DNA from: Candidatus Thorarchaeota archaeon
Lineage (GTDB): Archaea; Asgardarchaeota; Thorarchaeia; Thorarchaeales; Thorarchaeaceae
Length of the DNA stretch: 41,474 nucleotides
Assembly: GCA_020348985.1 (NCBI GenBank)
Contig: CP070761.1
Span: 56,449 to 97,922 of the forward strand
Direction of reading: 5' to 3'
Shown: piece after piece, positions 7,739-41,472 of the stretch
How the letters are laid out: every line of letters starts with the position of its first letter
Numbering within the stretch: position 1 is the first letter of the stretch
Notes under the pieces: model-generated
What the model was told of the DNA's origin: nothing
The model's database searches: none
Seen by the model: only the letters and a program-made list of their open reading frames with translations
Position numbers and translations under genes: made by a program

Positions 7739-8782
7739 ATTCCATCAAAGAAGGAAGATGTCGATTCGGAGGAATCCGACTACGAGGATTTTGAGAGCAC
7801 AGAAGAAGATGAAGGTATCATCGATGATGATGCGGCCTTGGAAGGTTTCGAGGTCACTGATTTGCCTGGTGTCGGCCCCGCAATAGGTAAACGGTTGGCA
7901 GAGGCAGGATACAAGAGCGTGGAGGCGATTGCTGTTGCTTCACCAGGTGAGCTGGCAGCTGCCGGTTCTATTGGCGAAACCACAGCAACGAAAATCATCA
8001 AGGCAGCAAGAGAAATGCTTGACATTGGTTTTGAGACTGCAGACCTGCTTCTCGAGAGAAGAAGGACTGCAGGAAGGATTACCACTTCATCGCGTGCTCT
8101 TGACGAGTTGTTTGGAGGAGGAATTGAGACTCAAGGCATAACCGAGATGTACGGATCGTTCAGATCAGGGAAGACGCAGATGGCACATCAGCTGGCGGTG
8201 AATATCCAATTGCCTTCAGGGCAAGGGGGTCTCGATGCAACGGCAATATACGTCGACACAGAGGGAACATTCAGACCGGAAAGGCTCGTTGATATGGCCG
8301 AAGCCTTTGGGCTCGATCCTGCAAAGGTACTCAAGAATGTCGTATGGGCAAGAGCGTACAATTCAGACCATCAGATTCTCCTTTGCGACCAAGCTATGGA
8401 GATGGCTTCCGAAAAGAATGCCAAGCTGCTTGTAGTGGACTCGGTCACTAGTCACTTTCGAGCAGAATACACTGGCAGGGGAACATTGGCTGCTAGACAA
8501 CAGAAGCTGAACAAGCACCTTCATCATCTACAAAGAGGTGCAGAGATTAACAACATGGCTGTCTACATAACTAATCAGGTCATGTCCCGACCAGATGCTT
8601 TCTTTGGTGATCCAACTGCCCCTGTTGGAGGTCATGTTCTCGCGCACGTGCCGCAGACCAGGTGTTACCTAAGGAAGTCTAAGGGTGAAAGACGGATATG
8701 CAGACTTGTCGACTCGCCAAACTTGCCGGAAGGTGAGGCCGTCTTCACTGTGACCAAGGCAGGTATTCGCGACGTAGAGTAG
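7739..8782 (+). CDS. radA: DNA repair and recombination protein RadA
   Basis: N-terminal HhH (DLPGVGP), FxxA motif (GFETA), Walker [50 protein letters not shown]. No intein. The ORF track starts at TTG 7838, but the frame is open upstream and an ATT at 7739 follows GGGAGG. Confidence 0.97.
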
Positions 8783-22800: not shown

Positions 22801-24639
22801 AGGGTGCGAGTAGGAAGCTGACTTTACTGCCCAGCTGGTCCACATGAGACTGGGCACTGGTTCCATATTCTCGAATCCCACATCCGTTTTACAGAGATCG
22901 ACAAAGGAAACCAGGCCGGCAGACACTTCAGACCCTGGGTCGATTCTTGAAAGGCACTGTGCGACCAAGGATGATTCTCTTGTCTTACCTACACCATCAT
23001 TTGCATGCAGACCAAAACCACCAGATGGCAGCTGCGCATCTGAAAGCCAAGCCAGCCCTGAAGTCTGATTCTCGGAATTGAGGGTCCCAAGGATATGCAT
23101 CGTGGATAGCGCATAGCTCGTGGAGAGGACAACTTCAGAAGATGGATATACGGAATCATAGTACGAGCCGTCAGCATTCGCCGTCTCCTCAATTATCCAC
23201 TCTGTGAGCTTGTTTGGATCATTGTGAGTTTCACCCAAGATATCAAGTGAGATAACGAATTGAGCAGCATATGTGTTCTTGGGGAAGAAGCTATAAGGAT
23301 TGACAGCAACGCCTCCCCAGTATGACGAATCGTTTGATTTTGCTCCAGTTACAACACACGAGCGTAGCCAGTTCTCTAAGTCACTTGTGTCTATGGCTCC
23401 CAATGCTGAAGCTGCGTTGAGTGCTTCAATAACAGTATAAGTCGTACTGATATCATTCGCGAACCCTCCATCGACTCCTTGCCGAGCTGCGAGATAGTTC
23501 ACTACTTTCGCCTCATCAAAAGACGAAGAGATGCCCATTGCCTCCATCAGCCATAGTCCACGAGCTGTCGCGCTAAATGTCAATGAGTAGTCTAGAGAAT
23601 TACGGAAACCAGCCTCCGTGTCGGATTCTTCATAGAGAGAAATGAGGATATCCTCAACAAGCTTCTGATTGTAGCTTGTCCATTGTGCTTTCTCAGTGTC
23701 GTTCAAGAGCGAATGGATGGAGCGAACTGAGAAATATGCTGCATCCACTGTGGGCTCGTGGACGTAAGAGAATGCACCTGAGATTGCATCAGATGGGCCT
23801 GACTGCAAGTCAGCAAGGACGGAGGATGTAGGACTCTCGCGTATGCTGGAGGCAAACCCAACTATATTTGCGACAAAATCTACCCCGCGTGTCGTCAGGA
23901 GGGAAGGATCCTCCAACCCTATCAACAGAGCATCAAGAGGCCATGAGTCAAATCGAAGTGAAGATAGTTTCTGAGGATTGGAAGATCCGGTAAGATTGAC
24001 CAATCGGGACTTGGCTGACTGAATCATGTCTACTGGCAGAGGAATTGGTGCCTCATTTGTTAGAAGAGCCCCCTCCTCTATTGAGTTTGGATAGCTGAGA
24101 AAGACTGCATCCTCATATTCTGATGATTTGATTAGCTGATTGTCAGAGAAGGCAGTCTTTGAGGGTGGACTTTGGTCCCTGAGACGATGGAGAATCCATG
24201 AAGCGCGTCCCATTAGAACCAATGGAGCGCTACTGAGAACAAGAGTGTTGATGAATGCTTCATCAACTTCAGTACCGTTGGAGGAGCCTATACTCGCGTC
24301 GAGAATCACAACAGGCACTTTCTCCAACAGATATGGATTCGCCGCAATCTCGTCGCAGTTCAACAGAGTAGCTACAATCCCCTCTTTCGTGAGTAGTTCC
24401 GTCATATCTAGTCCGTGGCCAGGAATTGAAGAACCAAGAAGCTCCACAACAACATACTTGTTCATTTCGACCTCAGTTCCTTGGATTCCTGAGATTACAA
24501 AGCTTGAATCAAGAGCATCAGGTCTCAATCCAATTAGGTGGCTTTGTGCTACCACCGTCTGCGATGAGTGGCTTGGGGGCAAAAACGCTATAACGAGTAA
24601 TAGTGCAAGCAGAGCAAACATTGGATTCCTCGAATTCAA
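16843..24639 (-). CDS. Giant membrane-anchored cell-surface protein: prenyltransferase/squalene-cyclase-like alpha/alpha repeats followed by tandem Ig-like domains
   Basis: Signal-peptide-like N-terminus. Repeats YLAARQGVDGGF, WLSDAQLPSGGFG, ANADGSY, SQHASGHY. Then many ~100-aa beta-rich units with D..G..I/L.G, T...G and G.Y...A.F.G patterns. C-terminal TM plus an RRR tail. GGGAGGG lies 6 nt before TTG. Confidence 0.85.
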   Translation of the reverse strand: MNSRNPMFALLALLLVIAFLPPSHSSQTVVAQSHLIGLRPDALDSSFVISGIQGTEVEMNKYVVVELLGSSIPGHGLDMTELLTKEGIVATLLNCDEIAANPYLLEKVPVVILDASIGSSNGTEVDEAFINTLVLSSAPLVLMGRASWILHRLRDQSPPSKTAFSDNQLIKSSEYEDAVFLSYPNSIEEGALLTNEAPIPLPVDMIQSAKSRLVNLTGSSNPQKLSSLRFDSWPLDALLIGLEDPSLLTTRGVDFVANIVGFASSIRESPTSSVLADLQSGPSDAISGAFSYVHEPTVDAAYFSVRSIHSLLNDTEKAQWTSYNQKLVEDILISLYEESDTEAGFRNSLDYSLTFSATARGLWLMEAMGISSSFDEAKVVNYLAARQGVDGGFANDISTTYTVIEALNAASALGAIDTSDLENWLRSCVVTGAKSNDSSYWGGVAVNPYSFFPKNTYAAQFVISLDILGETHNDPNKLTEWIIEETANADGSYYDSVYPSSEVVLSTSYALSTMHILGTLNSENQTSGLAWLSDAQLPSGGFGLHANDGVGKTRESSLVAQCLSRIDPGSEVSAGLVSFVDLCKTDVGFENMEPVPSLMWTSWAVKSASYSHPEINKSLLEKYLESFSRWEQYPNTTPFIPPEYSLMQYYDQSTWAQLLAVSTAKWSGITLSAARVSETSSYIGVSQHASGHYRPTQYMGTEHMQYTVAAVEALSIIDKLSTINYRNQLESVVMVDYSSGTWEMSSWTLRPFAGHQQAIDWLCTRAAFRLDLINESIASEIESQISSRVQYDDLWLLSRDVATLALLNSSFSVSLGTINETRVLEELSSSFTEGWYNTTSLWQPVFTADVLEMASILGLRIPMREIQGTLLSVNANDVAEIGQTLSVSVANTSTDQLHTVYVNGFDSWFRFDNVTNVDSLDLQLPSKKEWLGECSLSFMTSHYGDVRAFSRIQVNVTGSLQGLLELTAPPALIGDRLNGTVSWTLETGADAGLTDLRVRLGDEISYQEWLYPNETSPFALSVPTIDFDPGSYNITVELVRTWCGPLILGREVTLEAPHPTYILAQSSISGHVGLDVLIDWSLHLQSNDSILQGQVVTLDVNNSTHSVFTDSKVSQDQSTQFVWNPCLRGNYTFLIKFARNGTLDSSIHSGILIISENSIIIWHNTGTHDQYSTHTISVELVDESETALEGFPISLRITTPTSSVLFDDVLVTNSSGYVSFSLQLAQNGVYGLSASFLGSSLLNPSSSQGLVVSWSYSELIAVGIPQDTNVGLGYSFEAQLVDSIGMPIAGSTSAIRITLLPSLIVYEEDLLTNATGFVSYQWFATSPGTYRLEAIFAGTLSRGAAAVTTTSETRVPVTLTILTSSLNEVSSLGWVAVEAQDHGGTSISGLMVSIELSLETGQLLLNETGVTVDGVFNVTWIPSRRGAHIIDANAPRQGWYDTDSFSTSTDVYELPIIIMEWVTQPTAPSICTLVAAVYDIAMNGISGVALVTTVTLDSVVLLETANTTDDDGRISFDLILSAPGSVLVAIEMASQGWLLACWSETSEDVLGLTGLQLSLNGQPVEQGTTLSIIVTLMDWEGNPLEESSIDLTIDRSNGSLALIAVLTTGIDGRAALAHDFHEVDDYIIRAFYSGDSLNSSAEATRIQRVYVTPRIVLISPPTSLLGNTVQLDIGLLDALGVAIAGRVVNVSITLNDITVFTSQFISLNGLQMVHWDPAVRGLATIQVRHTSDAHYLYNTTLTTISILEIVDGSLQLSSQTLDLFESVTLNYTLIAGGVVCSVDILFEVLAPDLVPLWTTVSRTDGVGHVSVNYMAVHHHGLLVVQAAPLGDQYLVGGDELGQMTVMTECNIQTVLSPTPVSLDGPVTISLILTDELGYVVDSLDVHVALFDPYDVPIRLGIWTDSVMLTVQAGSANVSFAPTTAGLHRLVVVSSGSPTVHSFTSEDLHTVHSPSILEYSGLVSELSVGDTLQFTVSLRDFYGNPLVGCDIQFLFDGPGALRIGPVALTTNTSGLVTWVSQIDTEGLWEIWTTFTGVGVYLPSTVSRSVDVRFGTVLRAQHLESGEIVANVTEAVFSVLLEDSAGTPLEGFTIRYEVYHESAGLIKLGSFTQTGQLPETVEIVFARMGNYTVVFLFDEITHYRSSTAAVVLFALGTSELRFPEQLSWKRSENATVAIEILDEVSLVIPPVSLDLALSLIGPFGNVSLASRLMAHSTNLSILLYALPVGSYVFTAIVRNSSSRIGCSGFFTFNVTTSSKISVSSTVLSGLVGDLHSITLRISDSLNERILGIIVTASLYNPSGLEILGSPLRPYVDLSAENGTVTIQWIPSLAGTYSLEVSYPGDAYTSQSFFVLSILARLESLIELEVDDYSDYGDSIEIRVVLSGGNSRIVGALVELEFARNGTVVAGRNVTTDLRGSAIISLSSLPAGHIALNATFPGTDVFARCSVRSIIAISPRVEVLVPSVENAFRGENCSLAFKVQVGGLAQEWSGDLSVVISGPNRYETETHSECGIDSEITLFVVLPLSGDYLLTATVSGLPVINMSSFEFVLIVTDSTEPILMDAGSAPVIGGGALVALVGVFVRRRLQKLLDDLPTDWE

Positions 24640-28254: not shown

Positions 28255-29244
28255 CTACACCCATCTCTCCAGTGTTGCTTGTTCCTTACCAAAATCTTTC
28301 CAAGTCGCGACAATCTCTCTGGCTGTGCGGTTCGCATTCTCTTCTCCAATAATCGGAGAAAAGAGCTTCAGCACCCTGGGCACAATTGGAGCGTTGAGTG
28401 ACAAGTCAAGACTATCAGCTCGAATGTCTTCTGCCTCATCAAAGATCTCACGTGCGTTTAGAAACTCGTTCCTTTCTGTTTGGCTGATTCCTTTGCATTT
28501 GAGAATCGATTCGAGATTGCCAAAGCGATTTAGAAGTACAATACCTTTCCGCGGTCCAACTCCTTTCATACCAGGGTGAAAGTCGCATCCACAGATGATA
28601 GCGAGGTCCTTTAGCTGCATTAGGTTGAGACCAAGACACTTCTTCAGAGCGTCCAGTGTTACATTCTCAATCTCTCTGCTTGAGAATCGAATCGACCTCG
28701 TTACATGAGCGCTGCCGAAGAGGAGCGCGTCGGAGTCATTGGAGAGCACTGTCTCAGCTCTGCCCTGAATTACAAGTGCTGCCGCTGTCATCTCAGCCTC
28801 AGACGATGCAGTAACTGAGGGAATCCCCAATGAGACACATAGGTCTCTTATGTGAGAAGCTCTGAAGTACCATTTGAGAGCAGGGTTCTCTATCAGAGCC
28901 TCAGCAATTTCTGTGTCGAACACATCTTGTTCACGCATGAACTGAGCATATAGACTGCGTGCAAGTTGTATGAGTGAAGGATTCGTGGGTCTCTTGCGCG
29001 CTTCTGGCGGACCATCGAATATGAAGATAGGAAGTACGTTGTTCAGAAGAGAGCCGCGGATGAAGCTGTACAGAACATGAACATGTGCAGTTGGAACCCG
29101 CCCGGGGACTTGACAATGGCCATACTCAAAAGAGCTGATTCTTCTCGTCATGTAGTTCGGTGTGTCTACTGCAATTGTTTCAATTGCAGTATCCACTAGG
29201 TTGTCAGTCTGCCAGGGAACGAAACTCCAATTCTTCACTCCCAT
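28255..29244 (-). CDS. Divergent FEN1/XPG-family 5' nuclease with C-terminal PCNA-interaction (PIP) box
   Basis: MGV start, IAVD, PIFIFDG, SEAE, SNDSDALLFG, H3TH motif GCDFHPGMKGVGPRKG, and C-terminal QATLERW. Confidence 0.9.
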   Translation of the reverse strand: MGVKNWSFVPWQTDNLVDTAIETIAVDTPNYMTRRISSFEYGHCQVPGRVPTAHVHVLYSFIRGSLLNNVLPIFIFDGPPEARKRPTNPSLIQLARSLYAQFMREQDVFDTEIAEALIENPALKWYFRASHIRDLCVSLGIPSVTASSEAEMTAAALVIQGRAETVLSNDSDALLFGSAHVTRSIRFSSREIENVTLDALKKCLGLNLMQLKDLAIICGCDFHPGMKGVGPRKGIVLLNRFGNLESILKCKGISQTERNEFLNAREIFDEAEDIRADSLDLSLNAPIVPRVLKLFSPIIGEENANRTAREIVATWKDFGKEQATLERWV

Positions 29245-29254
29245 CTCTAGTCAC

Positions 29255-29983
29255 CTACAATGAACGGATAGACTTCAAGCCGCTACGCTCAAGCTTTAGG
29301 ATGATTGAGGTACCCGATGAGCTTGAGGGACTCCTCTCTATTGAGAATCGCACAATGTCAGTCGTGCTGTTTATCCAGTCAACCCTGACAACAGAATCCA
29401 CATCATGACCAAGTACGTTCCCGCCTATTGGACGTGCCTCACCTGTTCTCCAATCATGTCTGGTGTGACCAGTCAGAGCGAGGTGAATCCCTGACTCATT
29501 CACTGTGGTCCTCATTGATTCTAGTGCACTGAATAGTTCTCTTTGTCTCTTGATTCCTCCAGGCTGTCCGGATAGGTTAAGGATTCCAGCAAGGTTGTCG
29601 ACAACGACCAAGTCGATGCAATCAATCTCATGAATCTTATCGGATACACTCATGAGGTCTGAAAGATCAAGTACCTCTGCAACGTGGATCCTTCGCAACC
29701 AATCGTCAGATTCTGATGGCTTTTTGGAGTACTGTCTGATTAGTCCAGGACTGTAGTTTCGACCTGAATCCACGAACAGAGATCCACCTCCAGATCTAGC
29801 AGCGGCTACGGTAATGATATGTGCCCACGCCGTAAGGGGGGCCTTCTGCGCTCCATGAAAGAGAGAGATCTCCATAGGTGCAAGAAGAGGCCCTATCATA
29901 GAATTAAGCTGGCGAGGGACTAGTCGTATTCTCGATTCGGAAAGCGCATTTATGTTCTCAAGTGGCGTCTCCAGCGGATTCAA
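29255..29983 (-). CDS. RadA/Rad51 paralog with degenerate Walker A
   Basis: LFVDSG..YSP, LRRIHVA, DLVVVDNL, RQREL and PIGGNVLGH align with RadA in this window (PVGGHVLAH). The P-loop position reads GAQKAPLT. Confidence 0.8.
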   Translation of the reverse strand: MNPLETPLENINALSESRIRLVPRQLNSMIGPLLAPMEISLFHGAQKAPLTAWAHIITVAAARSGGGSLFVDSGRNYSPGLIRQYSKKPSESDDWLRRIHVAEVLDLSDLMSVSDKIHEIDCIDLVVVDNLAGILNLSGQPGGIKRQRELFSALESMRTTVNESGIHLALTGHTRHDWRTGEARPIGGNVLGHDVDSVVRVDWINSTTDIVRFSIERSPSSSSGTSIILKLERSGLKSIRSL

Positions 29984-30899
29984 CCCCCATACGCAGAATT
30001 GAAGGGTCCCGACTGAGGAACAGTTTCTTCAGAAACCTGCGCGTCATCACCTCAGCAGGAAGACCTGGAACACTAGTCACAGGTAGTATGGCGATGAGAC
30101 CTTGCAGACTAGGGAACAAGGTCATTCGCTCCGGTCGAATTCTCAGCAACTTGTCGACGACCTCATTATCACTGACAACCCTATATTCGTCCAGAGGAAT
30201 CCCGTGAGCCTGTTCGACAAAGGGGAGACTCAATACAATACTAGCTAGCTGAGCAGAAGCTCTTCTATAACCAGTGATTCTGGCCTCCTCTAGCACTGAT
30301 TCTACTTTTTGCACCCAGGTGGAATCATCAGCAACATTGATTGCCAACAAGTCAAAGTCTAGAAGATAAACAAGTGAGACTGGCAGGATCGGACGCTCCC
30401 TCATAACTTGCACTACTGAGTCGGTTAATGCCTTTGGCAGAATGAGTGCCTTCATGTTGTCAAACGGGAAACTTGGTATACTTGGAAGTAGTTCGGCGCC
30501 ATTCTCGAAGTTGATTGCAGTGGCGATAACATCTGATGTGTGGTTCAATAGACTAGAGAATTGTGATACGAAATCCATGACTCCAGATGGCTCCTGAATC
30601 AATCTGCAGCCAATAACAACGAGCGCACCAGAAAGTAGTGCAATGTGAATGCCAAACGGAATTACAATGATGATGACGGCAAACGTAAAGCAGGCGACTG
30701 ATGCCCATGCGATGACATTCATTATACCGTGGCTTGGACTTACCGGATTGACACTTGCTGAAACTCTGATAAGGAGAAGCGAGCAAGAAGCGAGAAGAAA
30801 GAGAGGAAGAGGGTTACCGAACCTAAACGCAAGAACAACCCCTGTCACTGAAACGACCATCTCTCCGCCAAGAAAGAGCGCGAGACCTCCGACTAGCAC
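29958..30899 (-). CDS. Hypothetical membrane protein (about 4 N-terminal TM helices + soluble domain)
   Basis: The first ~100 aa are hydrophobic, followed by an alpha/beta region. The ORF fills the gap between the two RadA paralogs. Confidence 0.7.
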   Translation of the reverse strand: MLVGGLALFLGGEMVVSVTGVVLAFRFGNPLPLFLLASCSLLLIRVSASVNPVSPSHGIMNVIAWASVACFTFAVIIIVIPFGIHIALLSGALVVIGCRLIQEPSGVMDFVSQFSSLLNHTSDVIATAINFENGAELLPSIPSFPFDNMKALILPKALTDSVVQVMRERPILPVSLVYLLDFDLLAINVADDSTWVQKVESVLEEARITGYRRASAQLASIVLSLPFVEQAHGIPLDEYRVVSDNEVVDKLLRIRPERMTLFPSLQGLIAILPVTSVPGLPAEVMTRRFLKKLFLSRDPSILRMGVESAGDAT

Positions 30900-30907
30900 A
30901 ATTCCTA

Positions 30908-31612
30908 TCAGACGGAAACATGACCCTCCGAGCAGCCTTCTTGCCTCCTGCTGTAACCCATGTCTTTGGACGTAGGATTGACTTCAACTATACCATCATT
31001 TGACAACCTTAGAGCGAGTATTGTTTCCATGGAGTCCATACTCTTGCCCGTCACTAGAATTCGAGATACTCTTCGCCCAGGTTCTCTTTCCACATGCAAG
31101 TCAAAGTCGGCAAACTTCTTGATTGAATCCAAGTGTACTGCTTGGTCCTCAACACCATTTGATCTTGATTCACTAAGAATGACTATCATGATGTTTCGCG
31201 AACGTGCGATACCTGCCAACATCGGAAGTGCCTCCTCGAAAAGGACCCTGGCCCACATGGGCTCACTACGAGGCCCCATGCCCAGAATTCGCGTTATTGT
31301 ATCGACAACAACGAGACTCGTCTCGTTCTTCAAACAAGAGGAAATTCGATCTATGGCACTTCTCGCATCACTGTGACCAAGCACAACAGAAACATTGGCT
31401 CGACTCCCTCCCGCTGAGACAACGTTTTTTCTGAGCAGTCTGATGAATGCTCCCTTCCCATCAGTGTTGACCCAAAGAACATGAGAATGGCAAGCGGCCT
31501 CAGAGGCAATGCGAATCGCCAACAAGGTCTTTCCTGATCCTGCAGAGCCCCATACGTGAACCAGACCTGAGATACCTGAAATTTGAACAATGCCACCATT
31601 ATGCAGCGTCAA
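30908..31612 (-). CDS. RadB-like RadA/Rad51 paralog (RecA-family ATPase)
   Basis: LVHVWGSAGSGKT Walker A, VLWVNTDG, SLVVVDTI Walker B. No N-terminal HhH domain. TTG 31612 after GGAGGAG is preferred over 31702. Confidence 0.85.
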   Translation of the reverse strand: MTLHNGGIVQISGISGLVHVWGSAGSGKTLLAIRIASEAACHSHVLWVNTDGKGAFIRLLRKNVVSAGGSRANVSVVLGHSDARSAIDRISSCLKNETSLVVVDTITRILGMGPRSEPMWARVLFEEALPMLAGIARSRNIMIVILSESRSNGVEDQAVHLDSIKKFADFDLHVEREPGRRVSRILVTGKSMDSMETILALRLSNDGIVEVNPTSKDMGYSRRQEGCSEGHVSV

Positions 31613-33173
31613 ACTCCTCCTCCGACTCAAATACCATCTTACCGTATCCAGTATTGTCCTCGATGTGGCTCCCTTCTTCCTGTAAAGTCCTGCTTGTATC
31701 ATCCCGCCCTGATGATCTCAACTCATTCATTAGCTCGTGATGTTCCTTCAATGAATCGTCTTCCAACGTTTCGAATGACTGGATTTGGTCTTCTGGGCGA
31801 CTCAATTCCTCATCAAAGTAAGCAAGCAGCCTCTCTGTGGATTTCCGTAGGATTAGCTCATCCACAGAATCTCTTGTATCCCTTGGGACAATTCCTGCAT
31901 TGAAGAGTGATAGATTCAGATAGCCGATGAATTCGACGAGTTGCTCAGCGGACACAGGCGACACCATGTGATTTGTTATTGCCGCATATGCAAGTGCCAG
32001 CTCGGCTTCCTCGCTCTCATCTTCCAAGCCCTCAAGGAACCTGAAGAGGTCAAGGAATCGTTCCATTCCCGGGTCACTAGAAAGAGTGTGCCTTGTTTCC
32101 ATTTCTTTAGGTATTAGATTGGATGAGACTCTAACACATTCATCCAGAATAGACGAGCAAAGTAAAACAGACCTTTCAGTTGATCCATCTCTAGCTGCTC
32201 TTGCTGCCGAGCCAATTAGCGGTGAAACCACGAAACCCAGATCATTGATTATCTTGAGAGTCCGTGCGTTCTCGAAGACGGATTTGTCTATTCTTTGTGC
32301 CTCTCCAATCTCGTCAAGAGCATTCCTCTCCAAAGCGAGCTGCTGCTTGAACTCTTGGATGACTCTTCTTGATTGAGTCAGATAGAGAGAAGAAGACGCC
32401 GCACCTAGAATGGTGGCAGCCAGTGGAAGTAACAGATTGCCAGAACCTGAAACGAAAGCGGAAACGAAGGCCAGAGTACCGATAATTGGAAGTCCTAGAA
32501 GAAGTGCCCCATACCATCCCTTCTTGACACCTCTTTCTAGAAGACGCCATTTCTCAGAGTCGACACTTTCGCTTACGTCAGGAAGGATTGATCGTGCATC
32601 ACTTCGACGAGCTAACGAAAACCCCTCGATATCGAGCACTCGCCTAGCCTCTGTCAGCCACGAAAGGTCAATTGTAGGCCTCACGTCCTTGGACACTACG
32701 TAAACGGCTCTTGTTATGTGGAGCAAAGACCTATTCCCTCCATCGCTTGACTTGAGCGTTTGAAGTGGAATCTGTCCCCAGGGAGTCATTACAGATAGCT
32801 CATCCCATCGGTCATCCAAATCGACATCCTTCAAAACAGAAGGCAAACTCCGATTTACTGTCTCGAGGACAGCGGCTTTCATCGCTATTGATGCCTTACC
32901 GAATGTTGCTTCCCTAAGGTCAAGGACGTACACAATCTCCAGATGGACGCCTCTTGCAGACGGTATTCCAGAAGTGCGAACTCCAAGAGTAATCCCGTTT
33001 GAGTAGACATGCGTCCGATGACCAGTCTTGTCTAGTATGTCACTAATGTCATATACGGCGTCTGGAGTGGCACCATCTCTCTGCGGGATTGAGTCCAACG
33101 CATCCGTTCTCGGGACATCATCAACAGAGAAGCTATCTTCATGGGTTCGGGGATAGGTCTTGTCTTCAGTCAC
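31599..33173 (-). CDS. Hypothetical membrane protein (central 2-TM hairpin, coiled coil, acidic C-terminus)
   Basis: YGALLLGLPIIGTLAFVSAFV and LLLPLAATILGAASSSLYL helices are flanked by large soluble regions. GTG 33173 overlaps the helicase stop (track start 33194). Confidence 0.75.
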   Translation of the reverse strand: MTEDKTYPRTHEDSFSVDDVPRTDALDSIPQRDGATPDAVYDISDILDKTGHRTHVYSNGITLGVRTSGIPSARGVHLEIVYVLDLREATFGKASIAMKAAVLETVNRSLPSVLKDVDLDDRWDELSVMTPWGQIPLQTLKSSDGGNRSLLHITRAVYVVSKDVRPTIDLSWLTEARRVLDIEGFSLARRSDARSILPDVSESVDSEKWRLLERGVKKGWYGALLLGLPIIGTLAFVSAFVSGSGNLLLPLAATILGAASSSLYLTQSRRVIQEFKQQLALERNALDEIGEAQRIDKSVFENARTLKIINDLGFVVSPLIGSAARAARDGSTERSVLLCSSILDECVRVSSNLIPKEMETRHTLSSDPGMERFLDLFRFLEGLEDESEEAELALAYAAITNHMVSPVSAEQLVEFIGYLNLSLFNAGIVPRDTRDSVDELILRKSTERLLAYFDEELSRPEDQIQSFETLEDDSLKEHHELMNELRSSGRDDTSRTLQEEGSHIEDNTGYGKMVFESEEEFDAA

Positions 33174-35370
33174 CCGCGACTTCCTCCTCCTCATTGTTGA
33201 GTCTCATCTGTATTCTTGAGAGTAGACTATGAGTCCGTTCAACTAGATCTTCGAGCCCACTGTGTTCTGCAACAACATAGATTGAGAAGAGAATCCAAAG
33301 GGCGTTGTCCAAGAGAGAGTAAACATCTCCAAGTGGCATTTCTAGGCTTCTCGCAATACTACCTATGGAGGACTCTGTGGTCACGAGAGAGCCTATGAGA
33401 TTCTCAAACGAACTGTCTAGATTTCTTCTGAGCTCTATGGACATCAGATGTCTGGTTAGCCATAATAGCCCAGAGTTGTCCTCCGTGAAAGGAGCAAAGG
33501 CGACAAGTTCTCTGAATGTGTTTATCCGTATGTAGAGCTTGTTGACCTTCTTCCCCAGAGAGGTTGGCCTCAATCGCCCATGAGTAGATCCTTCAACCAG
33601 ATTGAGGCGAATCAATGTTCTTGAGGGACTGGTCTCACTTAGCGCCAGAGGAATAACGAAGTTCGCTCCTTCTGGATTCTTTTGTGCAGCTATCATGCCA
33701 AGAGCGACCAAGTGATGACAAAGAATCCCTTCGTGAGAAATAGGTTCACCACAAGAGCATGTTGGGCCTTCAACCGTGCCGCGCGAAGAGCAACTTCTAG
33801 CGGAGAATCTGCATGTCACTCCTCTTCCGCCATTCTCCTCAACCATTCCGCCGATTGTTGAATCCGTGGTCTCTCTGATCTCTACCGTTCCAAGTACGCC
33901 AGCTTTAGCAGCTCGGATGGTCTCTTCCAATCCGTGACACTCAATGGCAGATTCCGCTGATATCTCTCCTAGTTCGAGTGCCCTTTGAGGAGACCTTTGG
34001 TTGCGGGAATGTGAGAACGCAAGAAAGGATTCTTCGAAAATCTCTTCTTGAATCTCCTGAATTGATGCTTCGCCCATGAAGTTTATAGCTATTAGTAATT
34101 GGTCTGTAAGTTCTGAAGGCGCGCCCATTGAACTGGTAACTGGAGAGAACCTCGGCGTCAACGTTGCGTGTCCAGTAACTTCGTCTGTCAACTCCTCGAA
34201 GTACTTCCGTTTTATTTCTCGAGATTCACCACGGCTGCCGCTAAGAATCACCCCGAAGCCTTTCTCGTCCATCCCAGGCCTACCTGCACGGCCAAGCATC
34301 TGATGTACCTGGTTTGTGGGCAGCATCTGAGTGTAGTCTGCTGGTGAACTCGTGCCTGCAATAATGACAACTCGTGCAGGTAGGTCCATGCCTGCAGATA
34401 AGGTGGTTGTCGCGCAGAGGACCCTAAGTAACCCCTTTCTGAACATATTCTCTATTAGCCTACGACTATCAGAACCTAGACCTGCATGGTGGTATGCAAC
34501 TCCGTTGTGGATCAATGGTCTAATCTCAAGAGGGAGACGCGACCCCCAGTGTTCTATTGAGTTAGCTTCGATATCTAACTCAGATCTCTCAATCTGAGTA
34601 AGCTGCCTACCAACATCGGAGCAAAGTCTCTTGGCTTCAGATTCGGCCTCACGCCTCGTGCGTGTGAAGACAATCGCCTGACCGTTTGCCTGGACAGTTG
34701 TCATGACAAGTTCTCGAATAGACTTGGTTCGATCATCAGTGGTGAGAACTCTGCACGAAAGTGGCACTGGTCGTTCGGAGGATTCTATTAGCTTGCATCC
34801 GAGCCAATCTGCCAAATCGTCTGCCGATGCTACAGTTGCTGAAAGAGCCACAATCTGAAGCTCATGCATGATGTGTTTGATTCTGAGAATGACACTCTCA
34901 AGGCGCGCGCCTCTATAGGGGTCAGCTATGTTGTGAACCTCGTCAATGACGAGAACTCCAATTTCGGAGAGGATCTGAGCTCGATGGCGAAGGAGAGAGT
35001 CTGCCCTTTCATACGTGGTGACAATGATATCAAGCTGCTCGAGTTCGGAGCCGTCTTTGTGATAGTCACCTGTTGATTGACCAACTGAGATATTCAGCTT
35101 CTCATAACGCTCCTGTAAGACATCTGCAACTTGGGAAGCAAGAGCTCTCAGGGGCACGACGAAAAGGCCTCTCTTGCCATCCAGAACCGCTCGCAAAAGC
35201 CCCATCTCTCCTACTAGCGTCTTTCCCGAGCCTGTGGGGCTGCATACGAGAATGCTCTCGCCATCCAGAAGCCCAGCCTCAATTGCATCAATCTGAACGC
35301 CTCGCGGAGTCAACCCCAAGTCTCTCAGAATATCTTTGATGTTGGTTGAGGCTGAACTTACAGTAATCAC
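33166..35370 (-). CDS. Ski2/Hel308-like SF2 helicase with inserted SWIM zinc finger
   Basis: SPTGSGKT, VVPLRAL, TGD, TTYE, DEVH, LSAT, RPVPL, HHAGL, ATTTLSAGMDLPA, QMLGRAGRPG. Also CSC-x10-CHH at aa 538-553. Confidence 0.93.
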   Translation of the reverse strand: MITVSSASTNIKDILRDLGLTPRGVQIDAIEAGLLDGESILVCSPTGSGKTLVGEMGLLRAVLDGKRGLFVVPLRALASQVADVLQERYEKLNISVGQSTGDYHKDGSELEQLDIIVTTYERADSLLRHRAQILSEIGVLVIDEVHNIADPYRGARLESVILRIKHIMHELQIVALSATVASADDLADWLGCKLIESSERPVPLSCRVLTTDDRTKSIRELVMTTVQANGQAIVFTRTRREAESEAKRLCSDVGRQLTQIERSELDIEANSIEHWGSRLPLEIRPLIHNGVAYHHAGLGSDSRRLIENMFRKGLLRVLCATTTLSAGMDLPARVVIIAGTSSPADYTQMLPTNQVHQMLGRAGRPGMDEKGFGVILSGSRGESREIKRKYFEELTDEVTGHATLTPRFSPVTSSMGAPSELTDQLLIAINFMGEASIQEIQEEIFEESFLAFSHSRNQRSPQRALELGEISAESAIECHGLEETIRAAKAGVLGTVEIRETTDSTIGGMVEENGGRGVTCRFSARSCSSRGTVEGPTCSCGEPISHEGILCHHLVALGMIAAQKNPEGANFVIPLALSETSPSRTLIRLNLVEGSTHGRLRPTSLGKKVNKLYIRINTFRELVAFAPFTEDNSGLLWLTRHLMSIELRRNLDSSFENLIGSLVTTESSIGSIARSLEMPLGDVYSLLDNALWILFSIYVVAEHSGLEDLVERTHSLLSRIQMRLNNEEEEVAGD

Positions 35371-37691
35371 AGAAAGTCACCTTTGCGAAGAGCTTGCCGC
35401 AGTGCCATTGCTCCTTTGAGAGTCATTCTGAAGTTGGCGTATTTGACACCGCTGTGAACCTCATGCCCCCTCAGAATCATGCTTGCTTCTTCAAGCTGGA
35501 TAAGCACAGTCTGCACATCCTCCTCACTATCACCGCTGGACGATATGAAACGCCTGGCAGCTTCCTCTGTAAGAGGTTCATAACGTTCCAAGAGCTGAAG
35601 TACTTGTACGGCCAGCTTCGTGTTCCGCCCAGACACAGATTCAAGGAGTGTGCGGTGCCTTCCTTTGTGGGAGTCAGTAGGTTCTCCAAGAAGCTGCGCT
35701 CTTCTTTCTGCCATCTGATCATGCGAAAGTGCTTCAAACTCGGGCGGCTTGTCCAGCGTTACTGGGTGTGCAGTCTTTGAAAGACCATCCACCAACAACG
35801 CGTTTCCTTCAGCCATCATTCTCAGATATGCTGATTCTCTTGCAGACAAACGAGCTTTGCTGTGCATCGAACCTACGACCGGGAGTCCGAGCATATCCGA
35901 AACCACTTTGATGTCATGAGAGGCTCTCAATACAAGTGATAAACAAGCTGAAAACGAGTCTGCGATTAGACCAAGATCGGAGGGGTGTCTGAGACCTACA
36001 ATCAGTGGACCTCTTTGCAGGACTTCGTTTGCCAAGTTTCGTGCCCAGAGCAGCCGTCTCTTGTGATGTGTATTGCTCACAATTAGATTCGGTGGATCAT
36101 CCATAAGAACAACAAGATCCGAGTCGGAAGCTATGCCTGCTATCTTGATAGCGGCTAGATCCCATGCCAATAGATCTAGATCTTCCGATCCTGTTTTCAG
36201 AATGATTATCGATAAGGGAATCTCTGCCAATCTGGAGAAGTGTATCGTCTGAGAGCCGTAGAATGCGTGGGCACCTGGACCTTGATGCAAAGCTCGAATC
36301 GCGTCCATTCCCTGCAAAGACGTGTAGGAAGATTCGATCTCAGGCCCCGTCTCGGATGGTTCGTTGGGACGTAGAGTGATGTCTGCTATTGTTGCTCCAG
36401 GGATCGCGACTGCTCTCCCTAGGGCGGTCACAAATTCTGGAGCTGGTGTAAGAGCAACATTTGATACTGATTCCAACGCAATCTTCAGTTTCGAAACATA
36501 CGATGCACCCGGTATACCTTCGGCATCGACAGGGTTGAGAACAAGATCCCTTCCCAAAGTGAATCCGACTGCATTCTCTTCGATCCCGGCCAGTGAGAGA
36601 CAATCCTCATGGCGACTCAGGATTAGGACCCTCTTTCGTCGATTCACGAGCTGTTTGACCAGTATTCTGTAGATGTCATATCGTTCACTTCGATGTCCAC
36701 CACAGACTAGTAGCCCATTTGAGATGTCTCTGCCAGACAGGCCAGCGACAGGACCTGGCAGGAGCGTTTCTGGATTGATGATACGACCGATTCTGAATTC
36801 GGTGTTGGCGGTCCTAATTGGTGCTACAAACTCACTTGGAACATTGCATCCCACTTCAGAAGAGAGCTCACTTGCGAGCTGAACTAGCCAATGTGAGAGA
36901 TCTCTACCTGTTGAGTAAAACGTGTGCCGGATTTCAGGAACACGATATCCGGCAATCTTCTCACCGAGCCTGCCAATTCCGGATTGAATCAGATTCTTGT
37001 CAGGGATTGCCCCCTTTATCGAAGATTGCAGTCTTCGGAGAGAATCGGCCTCACGAGTGTGTCCTAGTATGCAGGTGCTTGTCTTCCATAGACCCCCTCT
37101 GGTAGTAATGTAGGATTCAATTTCGGTGTTGGAAAGGAACTTGTTGAAGTAGTTCTCAAGAGCTTTGGTGACTATCCCTTCATCTAGAAGACGTTTGGGC
37201 CTTTCTCGCCTCATGCCAATCATTATGTAGATTCCATCTTCAGAATTGATTGCGCGCATAAGTCGACCCAGATTGCCTTTCAGCGTGGTAGATGCAGACT
37301 TCATCTGCGCCATTGAGATATGGCGAGATCCACCAGTACCCCTTGACTTCACCGATTCTCTTTGCGTCTCGAAATTCAAGTCGGCCTTTGGGACAATACA
37401 CCAATCATCGCCATAGGGTGCGAGATCCATCTTGTTCCTCTCCATTTGGGAGATTACCAGCAAGTAAACAGACAAACCCAGACAGAAGGCTGAGACAAAT
37501 GACGGTATCCAGAGAATCAGGAGAGTAAGAACACTGGATGCAAAAATGATACGCTGCCATTGAGTCCGCACCTCACGATTGTCCCAATGCAGCTTGTCGC
37601 TCTGTGTGACACTCATGGATGACTCTTGGATTTCTGCCATTGGGTCCTTTAGTGGTTTGGAACCAATTACGTGACCCTTAGTCAGCCACAA
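35367..37691 (-). CDS. Membrane-anchored HerA/VirB4-like ATPase-fold protein with degenerate P-loop and C-terminal winged helix
   Basis: TM hairpin at aa ~48-80. IGRI..PVAGL..DI..GLLVCG..ILVKQL...RVLIL..H...LNPVD follows the DUF87/HerA N-terminal pattern. Walker B-like LVVLMDD. C-terminal wHTH ending in FRMTLKG. Confidence 0.6.
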   Translation of the reverse strand: MWLTKGHVIGSKPLKDPMAEIQESSMSVTQSDKLHWDNREVRTQWQRIIFASSVLTLLILWIPSFVSAFCLGLSVYLLVISQMERNKMDLAPYGDDWCIVPKADLNFETQRESVKSRGTGGSRHISMAQMKSASTTLKGNLGRLMRAINSEDGIYIMIGMRRERPKRLLDEGIVTKALENYFNKFLSNTEIESYITTRGGLWKTSTCILGHTREADSLRRLQSSIKGAIPDKNLIQSGIGRLGEKIAGYRVPEIRHTFYSTGRDLSHWLVQLASELSSEVGCNVPSEFVAPIRTANTEFRIGRIINPETLLPGPVAGLSGRDISNGLLVCGGHRSERYDIYRILVKQLVNRRKRVLILSRHEDCLSLAGIEENAVGFTLGRDLVLNPVDAEGIPGASYVSKLKIALESVSNVALTPAPEFVTALGRAVAIPGATIADITLRPNEPSETGPEIESSYTSLQGMDAIRALHQGPGAHAFYGSQTIHFSRLAEIPLSIIILKTGSEDLDLLAWDLAAIKIAGIASDSDLVVLMDDPPNLIVSNTHHKRRLLWARNLANEVLQRGPLIVGLRHPSDLGLIADSFSACLSLVLRASHDIKVVSDMLGLPVVGSMHSKARLSARESAYLRMMAEGNALLVDGLSKTAHPVTLDKPPEFEALSHDQMAERRAQLLGEPTDSHKGRHRTLLESVSGRNTKLAVQVLQLLERYEPLTEEAARRFISSSGDSEEDVQTVLIQLEEASMILRGHEVHSGVKYANFRMTLKGAMALRQALRKGDFL

Positions 37692-37953
37692 GACCTCCTG
37701 TTCGTTTTGATAGATTTTCTACAACTCGCCTCAGGCGATGATGAGTCTCGGAATCCCCACCCCATATCAGAACTCGTCGGCCGACTATTGTGAGATCAGG
37801 TAGGCTGCACTTGCACGATTGCCCATGGGCAATAGGTTTTGGAGACCGAACAAGAAACTTCCAATCGTACCCGTGACCTGTTTGCATGGCCTGAATTAGG
37901 ATTTCAGCTAGGGAATCATCTTCAAGCTCAATCTGACTGGTGACATTCAACAT
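37678..37953 (-). CDS. Small hypothetical protein
   Basis: It fills the gap within the operon and overlaps both neighbours. ATG 37953 follows GAGGT (track start 37962). Confidence 0.5.
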   Translation of the reverse strand: MLNVTSQIELEDDSLAEILIQAMQTGHGYDWKFLVRSPKPIAHGQSCKCSLPDLTIVGRRVLIWGGDSETHHRLRRVVENLSKRTGGLVAD

Positions 37954-38536
37954 TGACCTCAATTCCTCCGTTCAGTACAATAAGCGCATCCTTCAGCCCA
38001 CCCCGATGCACAGGTGTGTGAGGGTAAGCTGCGCGCATTGCACCTTCAAGCACTTGTGCGTCCTCTGCTACCTTCTCCGTCATTCTCAGAACTCGTGACT
38101 TGCTTTGGATGATTCTTGAAGCCCGACGGGCCACCATCATTCCCACTTTCGTAGGGCGATTTCCCAGAGGCCGGGCCAAGAAGAATCGGAGCTCTCCCCC
38201 TTCCTCCTCCTCAAGTCTGGTGCTCATTGCCGCTAGAACACGACCTGCGGCATGTTTTAGATCGATTCCAATGGGGACACTCGCTATCACACATGTAGCA
38301 CATATTTCTACGCTCCAGGGTCTGAAAACTGCCGCAAGCTTCGATTCGCCATTCCATTGAACTGCCGGAGGCATGCCCAGCCGCAGTATGACATAGACAA
38401 GTAGGCAGAGAGAGAGCATGCCTCCAATTGAGATAGCAGTGTCAGTCACGGATGGAAACAGCACCAATCTTAATGACCACGCAGCTGCGACTGCGCCTAG
38501 CAAGGACAATCTATCCGGATGATCAGTATTTAGCAA
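37928..38536 (-). CDS. Hypothetical membrane protein (2 N-terminal TM helices + alpha/beta domain)
   Basis: Two hydrophobic helices, then a soluble domain. An in-frame TTG at 38536 lies 8 nt after GGAGG, immediately after the XPD stop (track start 38575). Confidence 0.7.
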   Translation of the reverse strand: MLNTDHPDRLSLLGAVAAAWSLRLVLFPSVTDTAISIGGMLSLCLLVYVILRLGMPPAVQWNGESKLAAVFRPWSVEICATCVIASVPIGIDLKHAAGRVLAAMSTRLEEEEGGELRFFLARPLGNRPTKVGMMVARRASRIIQSKSRVLRMTEKVAEDAQVLEGAMRAAYPHTPVHRGGLKDALIVLNGGIEVNVECHQSD

Positions 38537-38537
38537 T

Positions 38538-40514
38538 TCAAGCACCTCCCTTTCTGTTAGCAAGAAACAACTCAATGGCAGAAATCATCTCATGCGGCTC
38601 GGTGAAAGGCCAGATGTCGGACACAATTCCTTCGCCAAAGACATCGATGTGTCTGGTGAATCTTCGATCGAGAAGGACAACAACTCCCCAATCGTCCGGA
38701 GATCTTCTCAATCTACCAATCAGTTGAGCAACCTTCCTGATTGACGGCAAGACTGTAGAGTAGTAGTAGCCTGCACCCTTTCCATACTTCTGCTCGTACC
38801 AGTCCCGTAGAGCACCACTGAAGCTTGTAGGTGGTGTAAACGGAATTCCGACGCCTATGACCAGGTCAATGAGGGAGGATCCTTCGTGAACAAGATCTAT
38901 GCCTTCTCCGAACTTTCCAGAATAGACCCCAAAGATAGCATGTGGAGCTGACTCCACAGCAGCCTTTACGTCTTCGATTCTAGCCCGGGGCTCTTCCACA
39001 ATCAAGCTCCTATGAGAACAATCGATCCCGTATGCTAACACATCATTAAGTATCGAATAGCTTGGGAACGCAATAAGGGCGCTCTTGTTGGCGGGCACTA
39101 TAGCGAGGACTTTCGTGATTCGTTTGGCGATTTCTGACCAAAGTGCAGGCCCTCGTTCTGTGTACTTTGTTGATAACTTTCTGTCAATGAGGACAAGCCT
39201 GCTTCCACTAGGGTAGGAGCCTGCAATGCTCTCAGTCCTAGCCGTTTTGATTCCCAATAGGGACGCGTAGTGGTGTATGGGGTTCAGCGTACCAGACATT
39301 AAAAGAACAGATCTTGCTCCTCTCAGCGTTGGAGCCAGCAGTCCAGCCGCGTTCAAAGGTCTAATCATCAATCTTGCATCGTTAGGAGTGAACTCACCTG
39401 TCCACCTACGCCCAATCTCAAGTGTGCAATGCCATCCTTCATTTTGAGCTGCCACAGCTCCGGCAACAAGGAATCCGATTAGCCTTTCCAAAGGGGTCTC
39501 TGTGCTGGCCTCAACATCCGTGCTGTCAAGTGTGTCGCCCTTGGTACCAGCTAGAAACTGCAAATCCATGTCTTTTATGAATCGCGGGATGACTTCCCAA
39601 GCATGCAGTTCTAGCTCCCTTTTGCTTCTCAATCTGTCTAGCTTTATCATCAGAGTCTCCCATAGAAAAGAAACGACGTCTGGTAGCCAATCCGCACGCG
39701 TGACCCGCTTGAGCTCACTGGCGTTGTTCTTCAGCCACAAGATGTCCCTGCCAGTTATTGATGCGGTCTCAGATTCGAGAATGTGGTCAGCAAGGTTATG
39801 AGCTTCATCAACAAGAATGTCGATCTCGGGCAACGTCAAGGACAGAGTTGTCAGCAACGCATTCCGGACTCTCCAATTGAAAATGTACGAATAGGGACCA
39901 ATGATTATCCTGCTGTTCTTTGCACACCATCGCAAGACCTCGTAAGGACAGAAGTCATGTGTCGCCAAGGTTGACTCAGCATGCTCCCGCGTGACAATAT
40001 CCTCATGCAGGAGACTCTCCACGTGCGCTTTCGCTCGTGCTCTAATCTGCGGCCGGCCGTCTTCACGGGACTTCTGATAGAATCCGTAATAGTAAGTACA
40101 CTGTCCGCTTCGGACCAAGTCGTTGCAGCCCTTTGTGAAGCCAGTAACTGATGTCGCCACTATTCGCTCCTTGATTGGGCACAAGTGGATTCTAGAAATC
40201 AGGCTGGTAGCAGTTAGAGGCTGTGACCCAACTCTGTGCGCCATTACTTGTCGAATCCTTCGTATCTCCTCTTCGAACACATCGGATTGTGAGTGGGTTC
40301 TGGTTAGAATGAATAGCCTAGAGTCAGATTCTTCAATCCGAGCGGCCAGGTATCCCGATAATACAGCGATTGTCTTCCCCACTCCACATGCAGCAGAGAG
40401 GAGACCTACGGTGCCCTGTGAATAGACATCGGCTGCGAATCTGACCGCGTTGTCTTGCTGGGGCCGCGGATCGTAGGGAAACCAAGACATTGCCTCTTGA
40501 TTCCTGATTGTCAT
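38538..40514 (-). CDS. XPD/Rad3/DinG-family Fe-S cluster 5'-3' DNA helicase
   Basis: Q motif FPYDPRPQQ, Walker A CGVGKT, RTHSQ, four Fe-S cysteines (HLCP, KGC, QCTYY, FCPYE), DEAH, SGTL, FPSY, EGID, GIPF, QLIGRLRR..D.G..VLLDRRF. ATG 40514 forms an ATGA overlap with the upstream stop. Confidence 0.93.
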   Translation of the reverse strand: MTIRNQEAMSWFPYDPRPQQDNAVRFAADVYSQGTVGLLSAACGVGKTIAVLSGYLAARIEESDSRLFILTRTHSQSDVFEEEIRRIRQVMAHRVGSQPLTATSLISRIHLCPIKERIVATSVTGFTKGCNDLVRSGQCTYYYGFYQKSREDGRPQIRARAKAHVESLLHEDIVTREHAESTLATHDFCPYEVLRWCAKNSRIIIGPYSYIFNWRVRNALLTTLSLTLPEIDILVDEAHNLADHILESETASITGRDILWLKNNASELKRVTRADWLPDVVSFLWETLMIKLDRLRSKRELELHAWEVIPRFIKDMDLQFLAGTKGDTLDSTDVEASTETPLERLIGFLVAGAVAAQNEGWHCTLEIGRRWTGEFTPNDARLMIRPLNAAGLLAPTLRGARSVLLMSGTLNPIHHYASLLGIKTARTESIAGSYPSGSRLVLIDRKLSTKYTERGPALWSEIAKRITKVLAIVPANKSALIAFPSYSILNDVLAYGIDCSHRSLIVEEPRARIEDVKAAVESAPHAIFGVYSGKFGEGIDLVHEGSSLIDLVIGVGIPFTPPTSFSGALRDWYEQKYGKGAGYYYSTVLPSIRKVAQLIGRLRRSPDDWGVVVLLDRRFTRHIDVFGEGIVSDIWPFTEPHEMISAIELFLANRKGGA

Positions 40515-41131
40515 TCGGCACCCTCCACACGTAGGCATGACTCGGCTGTATATATTCTGAAACGAATTGAGAAGTAACGGTTCAGAAGGTAGTAGTAGCG
40601 ATCCAAGTGTTCCCGCGAATCGAAGTGCTTTACAGAGCAGGCCATACGTTCGACTATTTCAGGACTAAACCCTTTCTGTCGAGCCGCTCTCCAGAACCAC
40701 TCCTCAACTTCCCGCATCGTGGATATGCAATGCGCCACGGTCGACTCAACAATCGAAATGAGAAACTCTAATGCATCCTTCGTTTTGTTAGGGATTGATG
40801 AAACTCGTTCGCCGGTTGGAATATAGGCGACGATGCCTTCGTTACTGTTCAGGTCTATCTCCACAGGGACACCCTTGCCTCCACGAAGGGTTTCCAGTAA
40901 TGAGAGGACACGGGGTATCTGGTGCAGAACCGGCTTGGATTTGTCGGAATGTCGCCAACCAATCCGAGTCACTACGAAGAGTGGCGGATCGCTATCAATG
41001 TTGACATCGATTTGCACAATCCTGATTCGGTGAGCAGTCTCTCTAAGAATGAGGTTGACGAGGTTGAGGACTGATTCCTGATGTGTCCCGCGTCTGAAGA
41101 CTTGAGTGCGTCCTCCGGCTTCAATGCTCAT
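40511..41131 (-). CDS. Hypothetical soluble protein
   Basis: 206-aa ORF with ATGA overlaps at both ends. No motif recognised. Confidence 0.75.
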   Translation of the reverse strand: MSIEAGGRTQVFRRGTHQESVLNLVNLILRETAHRIRIVQIDVNIDSDPPLFVVTRIGWRHSDKSKPVLHQIPRVLSLLETLRGGKGVPVEIDLNSNEGIVAYIPTGERVSSIPNKTKDALEFLISIVESTVAHCISTMREVEEWFWRAARQKGFSPEIVERMACSVKHFDSREHLDRYYYLLNRYFSIRFRIYTAESCLRVEGAE

Positions 41132-41472
41132 GAGTGCTCATCCTCATGCCCAATTGTAACTCCGTCTTCAATCTCGATTACTGCGCCAGAATCGATAAGG
41201 TCATACAAGACTCGGCTTGTTTTGGAAAGCGTTATCCCTGCTTCCGCGGCTTCCTGAATCACCTTGACTATTGCCACTGGCCTGCCGCGATTCAAGTCTA
41301 CTAGCGCGTCTATGATATTGATGATGCGACGTCTGACCCCCAGGCCTCTCTGTGGTTTCTTGCTCTTGCTCCGGCTTTTTGATTCAAGCGCCAGCTTTCT
41401 TACATATTCCTCTGCTTCCAGAACCGTTGACGCATAGACAATTTCGTTTTCACTTGCCTGCAAAGTCCCGCA
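41128..41472 (-). CDS. C-terminal fragment of a winged-helix-terminated protein, MCM C-terminus-like (5' end outside the window)
   Basis: The frame is open to the window edge. IINIIDAL...VAIVKVIQEAAEAGI...SRVLYDLIDSGAVIEIEDG resembles the archaeal MCM C-terminal winged helix. Confidence 0.5.
   Translation of the reverse strand, partial: CGTLQASENEIVYASTVLEAEEYVRKLALESKSRSKSKKPQRGLGVRRRIINIIDALVDLNRGRPVAIVKVIQEAAEAGITLSKTSRVLYDLIDSGAVIEIEDGVTIGHEDEHS

Follow-up and report, generated by a model that had tools for sequence, protein, structure and literature searches.

Helicases of the Hel308/HELQ type control recombination. In Hel308 the winged helix contributes to the binding and unwinding of DNA, and Hel308/HELQ domain 5 is described as a brake, a sensor of single-stranded DNA (ssDNA) and an annealing element (2026 review, PMC13623763). 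In proteins of the Shu2 family the motif extends to CxC..CxHxxA, its alanine being invariant (PMC6316741). A stretch of 41,474 nt from Candidatus Thorarchaeota archaeon (GCA_020348985.1, CP070761.1 positions 56,449–97,922; this whole stretch is called the window and its numbering is used below unless stated) contains a gene, P0001, for a Hel308-like helicase with a SWIM-type domain inserted in its winged helix. Domain architecture, motif conservation, paralogy, distribution and synteny were computed here. P0001 is very probably an active 3'-5' Ski2/Hel308 helicase of an Asgard-specific paralog subfamily, with a SWIM module in the winged helix and domain 5 lost, which acts as the motor of a conserved recombination/repair operon. 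Full-text searches of the literature (SWIM + Hel308 + archaea; SWIM + Asgard + helicase) found no description of a SWIM-bearing Hel308, and SWIM and zinc are both absent from the 2026 review.

An earlier reading of this DNA, made from the letters alone and called here the sequence-only reading, had proposed a Hel308-type open reading frame (ORF) at this position. This was borne out, as the frame is open over its full length with Hel308/Hjm as the best matches. The superfamily 2 (SF2) motifs I, Ia, II (DExH), III, V and VI are intact, and all 18 Thorarchaeota orthologs share SPTGSGKT, DEVH, SAT and QMLGRAGRPG unchanged. Pfam returned DEAD, Helicase_C and, weakly, the archaeal helicase domain 4. 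The NCBIfam Hel308 models match residues 8–450 at 286–349 bits, and their equivalog cut-offs are not reached (NF002654, 348.7 against 887 bits; NF040935, 299.6 against 1200 bits). The best whole-chain fold matches in the PDB were Hjm/Hel308 structures (Foldseek E ~1e-32, TM 0.65–0.73) followed by POLQ and Brr2, and the best PDB sequence matches were Hel308/Hjm and Brr2. By these comparisons P0001 is classed as a Ski2/Hel308-type SF2 helicase with all motor motifs intact. Given that the motifs are intact and the ratchet domain is present, it is most likely an active 3'-5' translocase/helicase, with both activity and polarity predicted.

The sequence-only reading also had the winged helix begin, break off for an insert and then resume, with no helix-hairpin-helix (HhH) domain at a short C-terminus. 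The strings on which it relied are present (QLLIAI..GEASIQEI..ESFLAFS, the insert, then LIRLNLVE..LRPTSLGKKVNKLYI). An AlphaFold2 model built from the 18 orthologs (predicted local distance difference test, pLDDT, 81) showed RecA1, RecA2, the winged-helix helices at 418–454, a linker of low confidence, a beta-rich insert, a wing hairpin at 592–602 and a helical ratchet domain to residue 733. Profile alignment with the canonical Hel308 of the same genome, P0081, was collinear over the motor and as far as the first helices of the winged helix, then showed a gap of ~120 residues, the extra P0001 residues falling between 'ESFLAFS' and 'SPSRTLIRLNLVEG'. The alignment resumed at 'SPSRTLIRLNLVEG..LGKKVNKLY' and stopped at P0081 residue 651 of 751. 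No P0001 counterpart to the last ~100 residues of P0081, its HhH domain 5, was found in this alignment and P0001 gave no HHH Pfam match. Since the model topology and the profile alignment agree, the position of the ~120-residue insert between helix 3 and the wing and the absence of domain 5 are confirmed.

Within the insert the CSC-x10-CHH motif lies exactly where the sequence-only reading had placed it, with C538-S-C540 at 33759–33751 and C551-H-H553 at 33720–33712 on the minus strand. C538, C540, C551 and H553 do not vary among the 18 Thorarchaeota orthologs or ten distant homologs, and they make up four of the seven invariant columns among 21 inserts, which share between 21 and 68% identity with that of P0001. 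Judged from this alignment, the motif is not a chance occurrence. The Pfam SWIM model (PF04434, gathering cut-off 19.6 bits) matches 11 of the 21 homologous inserts at E<=1, and the inserts of P0067 (22.0 bits) and of P0082 (19.6 bits), a second SWIM-bearing paralog described below, reach the cut-off. When modelled alone the insert gave a pLDDT of 90.5 and a predicted template modelling score of 0.85, with two helices, four strands, a knuckle and a helix; in the whole-chain model a helix begins at C551 (552–564). A fold search with the model of the insert gave the SWIM region of ZSWIM8 as the sole standout (Z 6.4, 99 residues aligned; next match 3.7). The ZSWIM8 chain also had the highest Foldseek probability (0.72), in a search which gave no match at E<=0.001. 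Searching the insert profile against PDB sequences returned nothing meaningful, an L31 zinc knuckle appearing at E 0.24. The sequence-only reading of the insert as SWIM can be kept, and on the homologs and the models the insert is accepted as a SWIM-type module and a putative zinc domain. Four SWIM-like stretches in P0077 were set aside as a low-complexity repeat artefact.

The genome (one contig of 3.16 Mb) encodes three relevant helicases, namely P0001, P0081 and P0082. P0081 (751 residues) lies ~8 kb beyond the window and matches the Hel308 models over its full length including domain 5 (NF002654 and NF040935, 847.8 and 619 bits), so that P0001 is classed by sequence as a paralog distinct from the canonical Hel308. 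In P0082 Walker A, DExH and SAT are each degenerate, and its SWIM motif has the classical form CxC-x12-CxH. Of the 400 sampled Asgard genomes, 203 give a match to the insert profile, and these fall in 51 of 85 genera. In the Thorarchaeota family to which this genome belongs, 83 of 85 genomes do so. Most genomes of this family give two matches, which is consistent with one active and one dead copy. Distant SWIM-helicase homologs retain intact motor motifs; those of family f22 at L099, L100 and L101 (genomes G277, G149 and G170) are longer, at 845–876 residues, than the Thorarchaeota type. The C-terminal half of P0001 has only 20 representatives among 1.84 billion proteins, and outside Asgard relatives were found for the motor core alone, these being the canonical Hel308 of Thermoplasmata and other archaea. 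Helicases with the SWIM insert are, as far as this distribution tells, an Asgard-specific paralog subfamily.

Table 1. Features of P0001, its neighbours and its second SWIM-bearing paralog (window positions unless stated).
Feature	Residues	Position	Strand	Remarks
SWIM-insert Hel308-like helicase gene P0001	734 aa	33166..35370	(-)	stop-free translation
P0001 RecA1 domain	~1-200	34771..35370	(-)	P45-T51, D143, E144 invariant
P0001 Walker A SPTGSGKT	44-51	35218-35241	(-)	
P0001 DEVH	143-146	34933-34944	(-)	
P0001 RecA2 domain	~201-400	34171..34770	(-)	motifs V and VI (TTTLSAGMDLPA, QMLGRAGRPG)
P0001 winged helix, N-terminal part (helices)	~415-455	34006..34128	(-)	AlphaFold2 model, profile alignment
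P0001 inserted SWIM-type domain	462-582	33625..33987	(-)	two short helices, four-stranded beta-sheet, zinc knuckle, two helices (model)
P0001 CxC-x10-CxH	C538, C540, C551, H553	33712..33759	(-)	putative zinc ligands
P0001 winged helix, C-terminal part (helix and wing hairpin)	~583-603	33562..33624	(-)	AlphaFold2 model, profile alignment
P0001 ratchet domain 4	~604-733	33172..33561	(-)	Helicase_dom4_arc 22 bits (Pfam); W692 nearly invariant
P0003, HerA/DUF87-like	774 aa	35367..37691	(-)	directly upstream
P0002	531 aa	31599..33194	(-)	directly downstream; hydrophobic central segment
RadA/RadB-family paralog 1 (P0004)		30908..31702	(-)	Walker A GSAGSGKT intact
RadA-family paralog 2	242 aa	29255..29983	(-)	Walker A degenerate (HGAQKAPLT)
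Divergent FEN1/XPG-like nuclease paralog		28255..29244	(-)	110 bits against FEN1 cut-off of 352
Divergent XPD/Rad3-like helicase paralog		38538..40538	(-)	
Second SWIM-bearing Hel308-like paralog P0082	767 aa	G000:C1 ~2162512-2164815 (locus L004:1378-3681)		outside window

The helicase gene is part of a minus-strand operon (28255–41463) in the order 206-aa protein, XPD-like protein, 215-aa protein, HerA-like protein, SWIM-helicase, 531-aa protein, RadA paralog 1, 313-aa membrane protein, RadA paralog 2 and FEN1-like protein. The same order is kept in every Thorarchaeota locus with sufficient flank, and the GTG start of P0001 overlaps the TGA stop of P0003 (GTGA). The similarity of the P0003 family to HerA/DUF87 is weak (profile, E 7e-5), and several of the operon ORFs are hydrophobic. 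P0002 has no family match and was found in Thorarchaeota loci only. The family profile of paralog 1 matches RadB 2cvf at E 7e-31 and that of paralog 2 matches P. furiosus Rad51 at E 8e-15. Canonical XPD and two canonical FEN1 genes are encoded elsewhere in the genome, and the canonical RadA, which scores 478 bits with NF003301 (cut-off 259), is in the window at 7838–8782 on the plus strand, ~25 kb away from the helicase. To judge from the profiles, the operon is a set of divergent duplicates of canonical repair proteins (Hel308, XPD, FEN1, RadA/RadB and HerA-like) with membrane proteins interleaved.

Some further observations concern the surroundings of the operon. At the head of the operon in the Thorarchaeota loci L007, L008 and L009 stands a RadA-like gene of ~350 residues that carries an HHH_5 domain. 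Here a 925-aa plus-strand gene borders the operon on its upstream side. The ORF at the window edge (41128–41463, minus strand) is a gene of ~111 residues in locus L094 with a divergent plus-strand gene upstream, and it corresponds by synteny to a ~150-aa protein of other Thorarchaeota loci. No large MCM-like gene continues from it. A giant surface protein of ~2600 residues with prenyltransferase-like repeats and Big/Ig domains (16843–24639, minus strand) is syntenic with the recombination operon, also in L007, L008, L009 and L014. This synteny extends to distant homologs, the gene lying two genes past the helicase in L009 and, as a 1326-aa version, just upstream of the RadA paralog in L014. 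Outside the window, at G000:C1:2748094–2751414, the canonical XPD (337 bits) is followed within ~1 kb by a further RadB-like paralog, which the A6 profile matches at E 1.6e-37. The genome has in this a second pairing of a helicase with a RadA paralog.

The sequence-only reading had put two RadA paralogs beside the helicase. Both are present, although neither is directly adjacent, the 531-aa ORF lying between. Surveying the linkage more widely showed that it is conserved in Thorarchaeota and recurs in several other Asgard families, a short RadA paralog lying within 10 kb of the helicase at at least eight non-Thorarchaeota loci (L011, L012/L095, L013, L014, L096, L097/L104, L058/L109 and L101), often with a FEN1-like or HerA-like gene also nearby. 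HerA-like relatives are within 10 kb at L011, L012, L014, L096, L107 and L108. The A6 RadA/RadB-family profile has three matches in the 3.16 Mb of this genome, paralog 2 not being among them, and since it matches three times only, the recurrence of the paralogs near the helicase is well above chance. No formal statistic was attached to this recurrence, the loci being related to one another. The genomic linkage of the SWIM-helicase to RadA paralogs is real. Some candidates were discarded: the 197-aa downstream ORF of L009 is a membrane protein and was removed from the alignment, and weak A6 matches to ORFs of ~300 residues in L014 and L108 match ArsA/ParA-type ATPases. A complex prediction for the helicase C-terminal half with RadA paralog 1 scored 0.00 without control runs and is uninformative either way.

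Several of the results weigh against the interpretation given at the outset. The insert of P0001 itself scores only 9.8–10.6 bits with the Pfam SWIM model, under the cut-off, so the SWIM assignment for P0001 rests on its homologs and on the motif, and the resemblance in fold to ZSWIM8 is of modest strength (Z 6.4, root-mean-square deviation 3.9). With a pLDDT below 50 for the linker at residues 447–470, the model does not fix how the insert lies with respect to the path of the DNA. Three of the four f22 loci and the single f30 locus sampled have no RadA paralog within 10 kb, and no FEN1-like or HerA-like gene nearby either. As the helicase occurs there without a nearby RadA paralog, its function cannot depend strictly on the operon.

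P0001 would be the DNA-unwinding motor of a translationally coupled operon whose other products are the XPD-like and HerA-like proteins, the two RadA paralogs (one with a dead P-loop), the FEN1-like protein and membrane proteins. The absence of domain 5 predicts an unbraked, poorly annealing motor whose control has moved elsewhere, and the SWIM insert is the obvious candidate for this relocated control. It may be a docking or regulatory module which couples the motor to another component of the machine and replaces control by domain 5. Candidates for its partner would be the RadA paralog pair or the HerA-like P0003, or it may act in cis.

If the SWIM domain docked specifically on the RadA paralogs of the operon, as Shu2/SWS1 does on Rad51 paralogs, P0001 would be a HELQ-like and a Shu-like mediator in one protein. 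The SWIM domain of Shu2 contacts the Rad51-like Shu1 (PMC5727457) and HELQ binds BCDX2 (PMC3778836, PMC13623763). The conserved co-location with one or two RadA paralogs in Thorarchaeota and several other Asgard families points the same way, as does the degenerate Walker A of paralog 2, which is like that of many mediator paralogs. The inserts of the Thorarchaeota orthologs have net charges of −7 to +2, atypical for a DNA-binding module, and mostly isoelectric points (pI) of 5–6; being acidic to neutral they weakly favour a protein partner over DNA. However, the alanine of the Shu2 family is not conserved, the linkage is missing in most sampled f22 and f30 genomes, and the HerA-like and 531-aa proteins are nearer neighbours and equally plausible partners. 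The motor-dead P0082 keeps its SWIM domain, yet none of the six ORFs scanned on its flanks, among them a PRC-barrel protein, a PAC2-family protein and succinyl-CoA ligase subunits, is a RadA paralog or other recombination gene. We regard docking on the RadA paralogs as possible but doubtful. It is also possible, if doubtful, that the domain has no dedicated protein partner and acts in cis or on DNA, sensing a branched or ssDNA feature or replacing the domain 5 brake intramolecularly. In the Thorarchaeota orthologs the gain of SWIM goes together with the loss of domain 5, the distant homolog P0078 retaining a C-terminal HhH-like extension, and the functions of the Hel308 winged helix and of domain 5 as brake and ssDNA sensor (PMC13623763) would suit such a role. 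According to work cited in PMC5727457, the first prediction made for SWIM was that it binds DNA or proteins. Some inserts outside Thorarchaeota are basic, with a pI up to 9.5, whereas the acidity of most Thorarchaeota inserts and the loss of R521 and R525 in distant homologs speak against contact with DNA.

A partner other than RadA was also considered. P0003 is the leading candidate, and the SWIM domain would then tether the motor to a ring translocase or membrane complex, with the membrane proteins of the operon as an alternative. The overlap of the two genes, the HerA-like relatives at the six loci listed above, the similarity of the P0003 family to HerA/DUF87 and the several hydrophobic ORFs argue for it, but that HerA assignment is itself weak and outside Thorarchaeota the HerA-like gene varies in distance and orientation, and we consider docking on P0003 unlikely. 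A role in anti-phage defence, as a Hachiman-like HamB helicase or similar, is highly improbable and was rejected. The PADLOC HamB and PDC-M23B models do match the helicase core (E down to 2e-45), but the matches span the generic RecA domains only and are weaker than those of the Hel308 models (349 bits). In the neighbouring genes PADLOC found neither HamA nor any other partner of a defence system, generic DinG matches falling on the XPD-like protein only, and a gene that is near-universal and syntenic in its family (83 of 85 genomes) is unlike a patchy defence island. The fullest form of the proposed explanation, in which the SWIM insert is an adaptor plugging a brake-less motor into a dedicated, maybe membrane-tethered Asgard machine (a RadA-paralog pair with one live and one ATPase-dead member, a HerA-like ring, an XPD-like helicase and a FEN1-like nuclease), and in which this machine corresponds in function to the eukaryotic HELQ-BCDX2 and Shu mediator modules, whether through convergence or perhaps through descent, is quite improbable as a whole.

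Compared with Hel308/Hjm (PDB 2p6r, 2va8, 2zj2/2zj8) and the helicase domains of HELQ and POLQ, P0001 has in common the Ski2-like SF2 core, the winged-helix domain 3, the ratchet domain 4 and a genomic context related to recombination. It differs from Hel308/HELQ in the ~120-residue SWIM domain in the winged helix, in lacking the HhH domain 5 and in coexisting with a canonical Hel308. Profile matches to Brr2/ASCC3/Slh1 are as strong as those to Hel308 (E 2e-102), and the active/inactive cassette pairs of these proteins recall P0001, with active motifs, and the motor-dead P0082 in Thorarchaeota. However, P0001 and P0082 are separate genes at distant loci with no Sec63 module and no RNA context, so the resemblance to Brr2-type cassette pairs is only an analogy. 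An Asgard-wide paralog that has apparently swapped domain 5 for a SWIM module in the winged helix, and whose gene is tied to RadA paralogs in many lineages, offers a natural experiment that could reveal how Hel308/HELQ motors are regulated and recruited.

Among SWIM domains (PF04434; ZSWIM8, PDB 9rwz) the P0001 insert is typical in its CxC-x10-CxH, the spacer being within the usual range, and its model seems to have the same succession of beta-sheet, zinc knuckle and helix; the region matched in ZSWIM8 is residues 83–291. Unlike the domain in other SWIM proteins, which is terminal or stand-alone, that of P0001 lies inside the winged helix of a helicase. The sequence-only reading had gone further and proposed a possible archaeal antecedent or analogue of the Shu/HELQ mediators; a specific link to Shu2/SWS1 found no support. 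P0001 does have A556 of CxHxxA, but the column reads A/T/N/S/K/R across the SWIM-helicase family, CxC and CxH are 10 residues apart, compared with 59 in yeast Shu2 (PMC5727457), and P0001 is not a small stand-alone protein. No sequence or fold match to Shu2 was recovered, its absence from both insert fold lists being no evidence that the folds differ, and membership of the Shu2/SWS1 family is not supported by the sequences. Given the variable alanine, the different spacer, a likeness to ZSWIM8 only and the f22 and f30 loci without a RadA paralog, the SWIM-helicase as an antecedent of Shu/HELQ stays speculation. As an analogue of Shu/HELQ it is a reasonable but unproven hypothesis. The likeness to Shu2/SWS1, and with it a possible functional analogy, lies in a SWIM-type motif encoded together with paralogs of the RecA/Rad51 family, one of them ATPase-degenerate. 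The P0001 operon offers an archaeal case, open to testing, in which a SWIM domain is encoded alongside recombinase paralogs, a pairing previously known only from the eukaryotic Shu complex.

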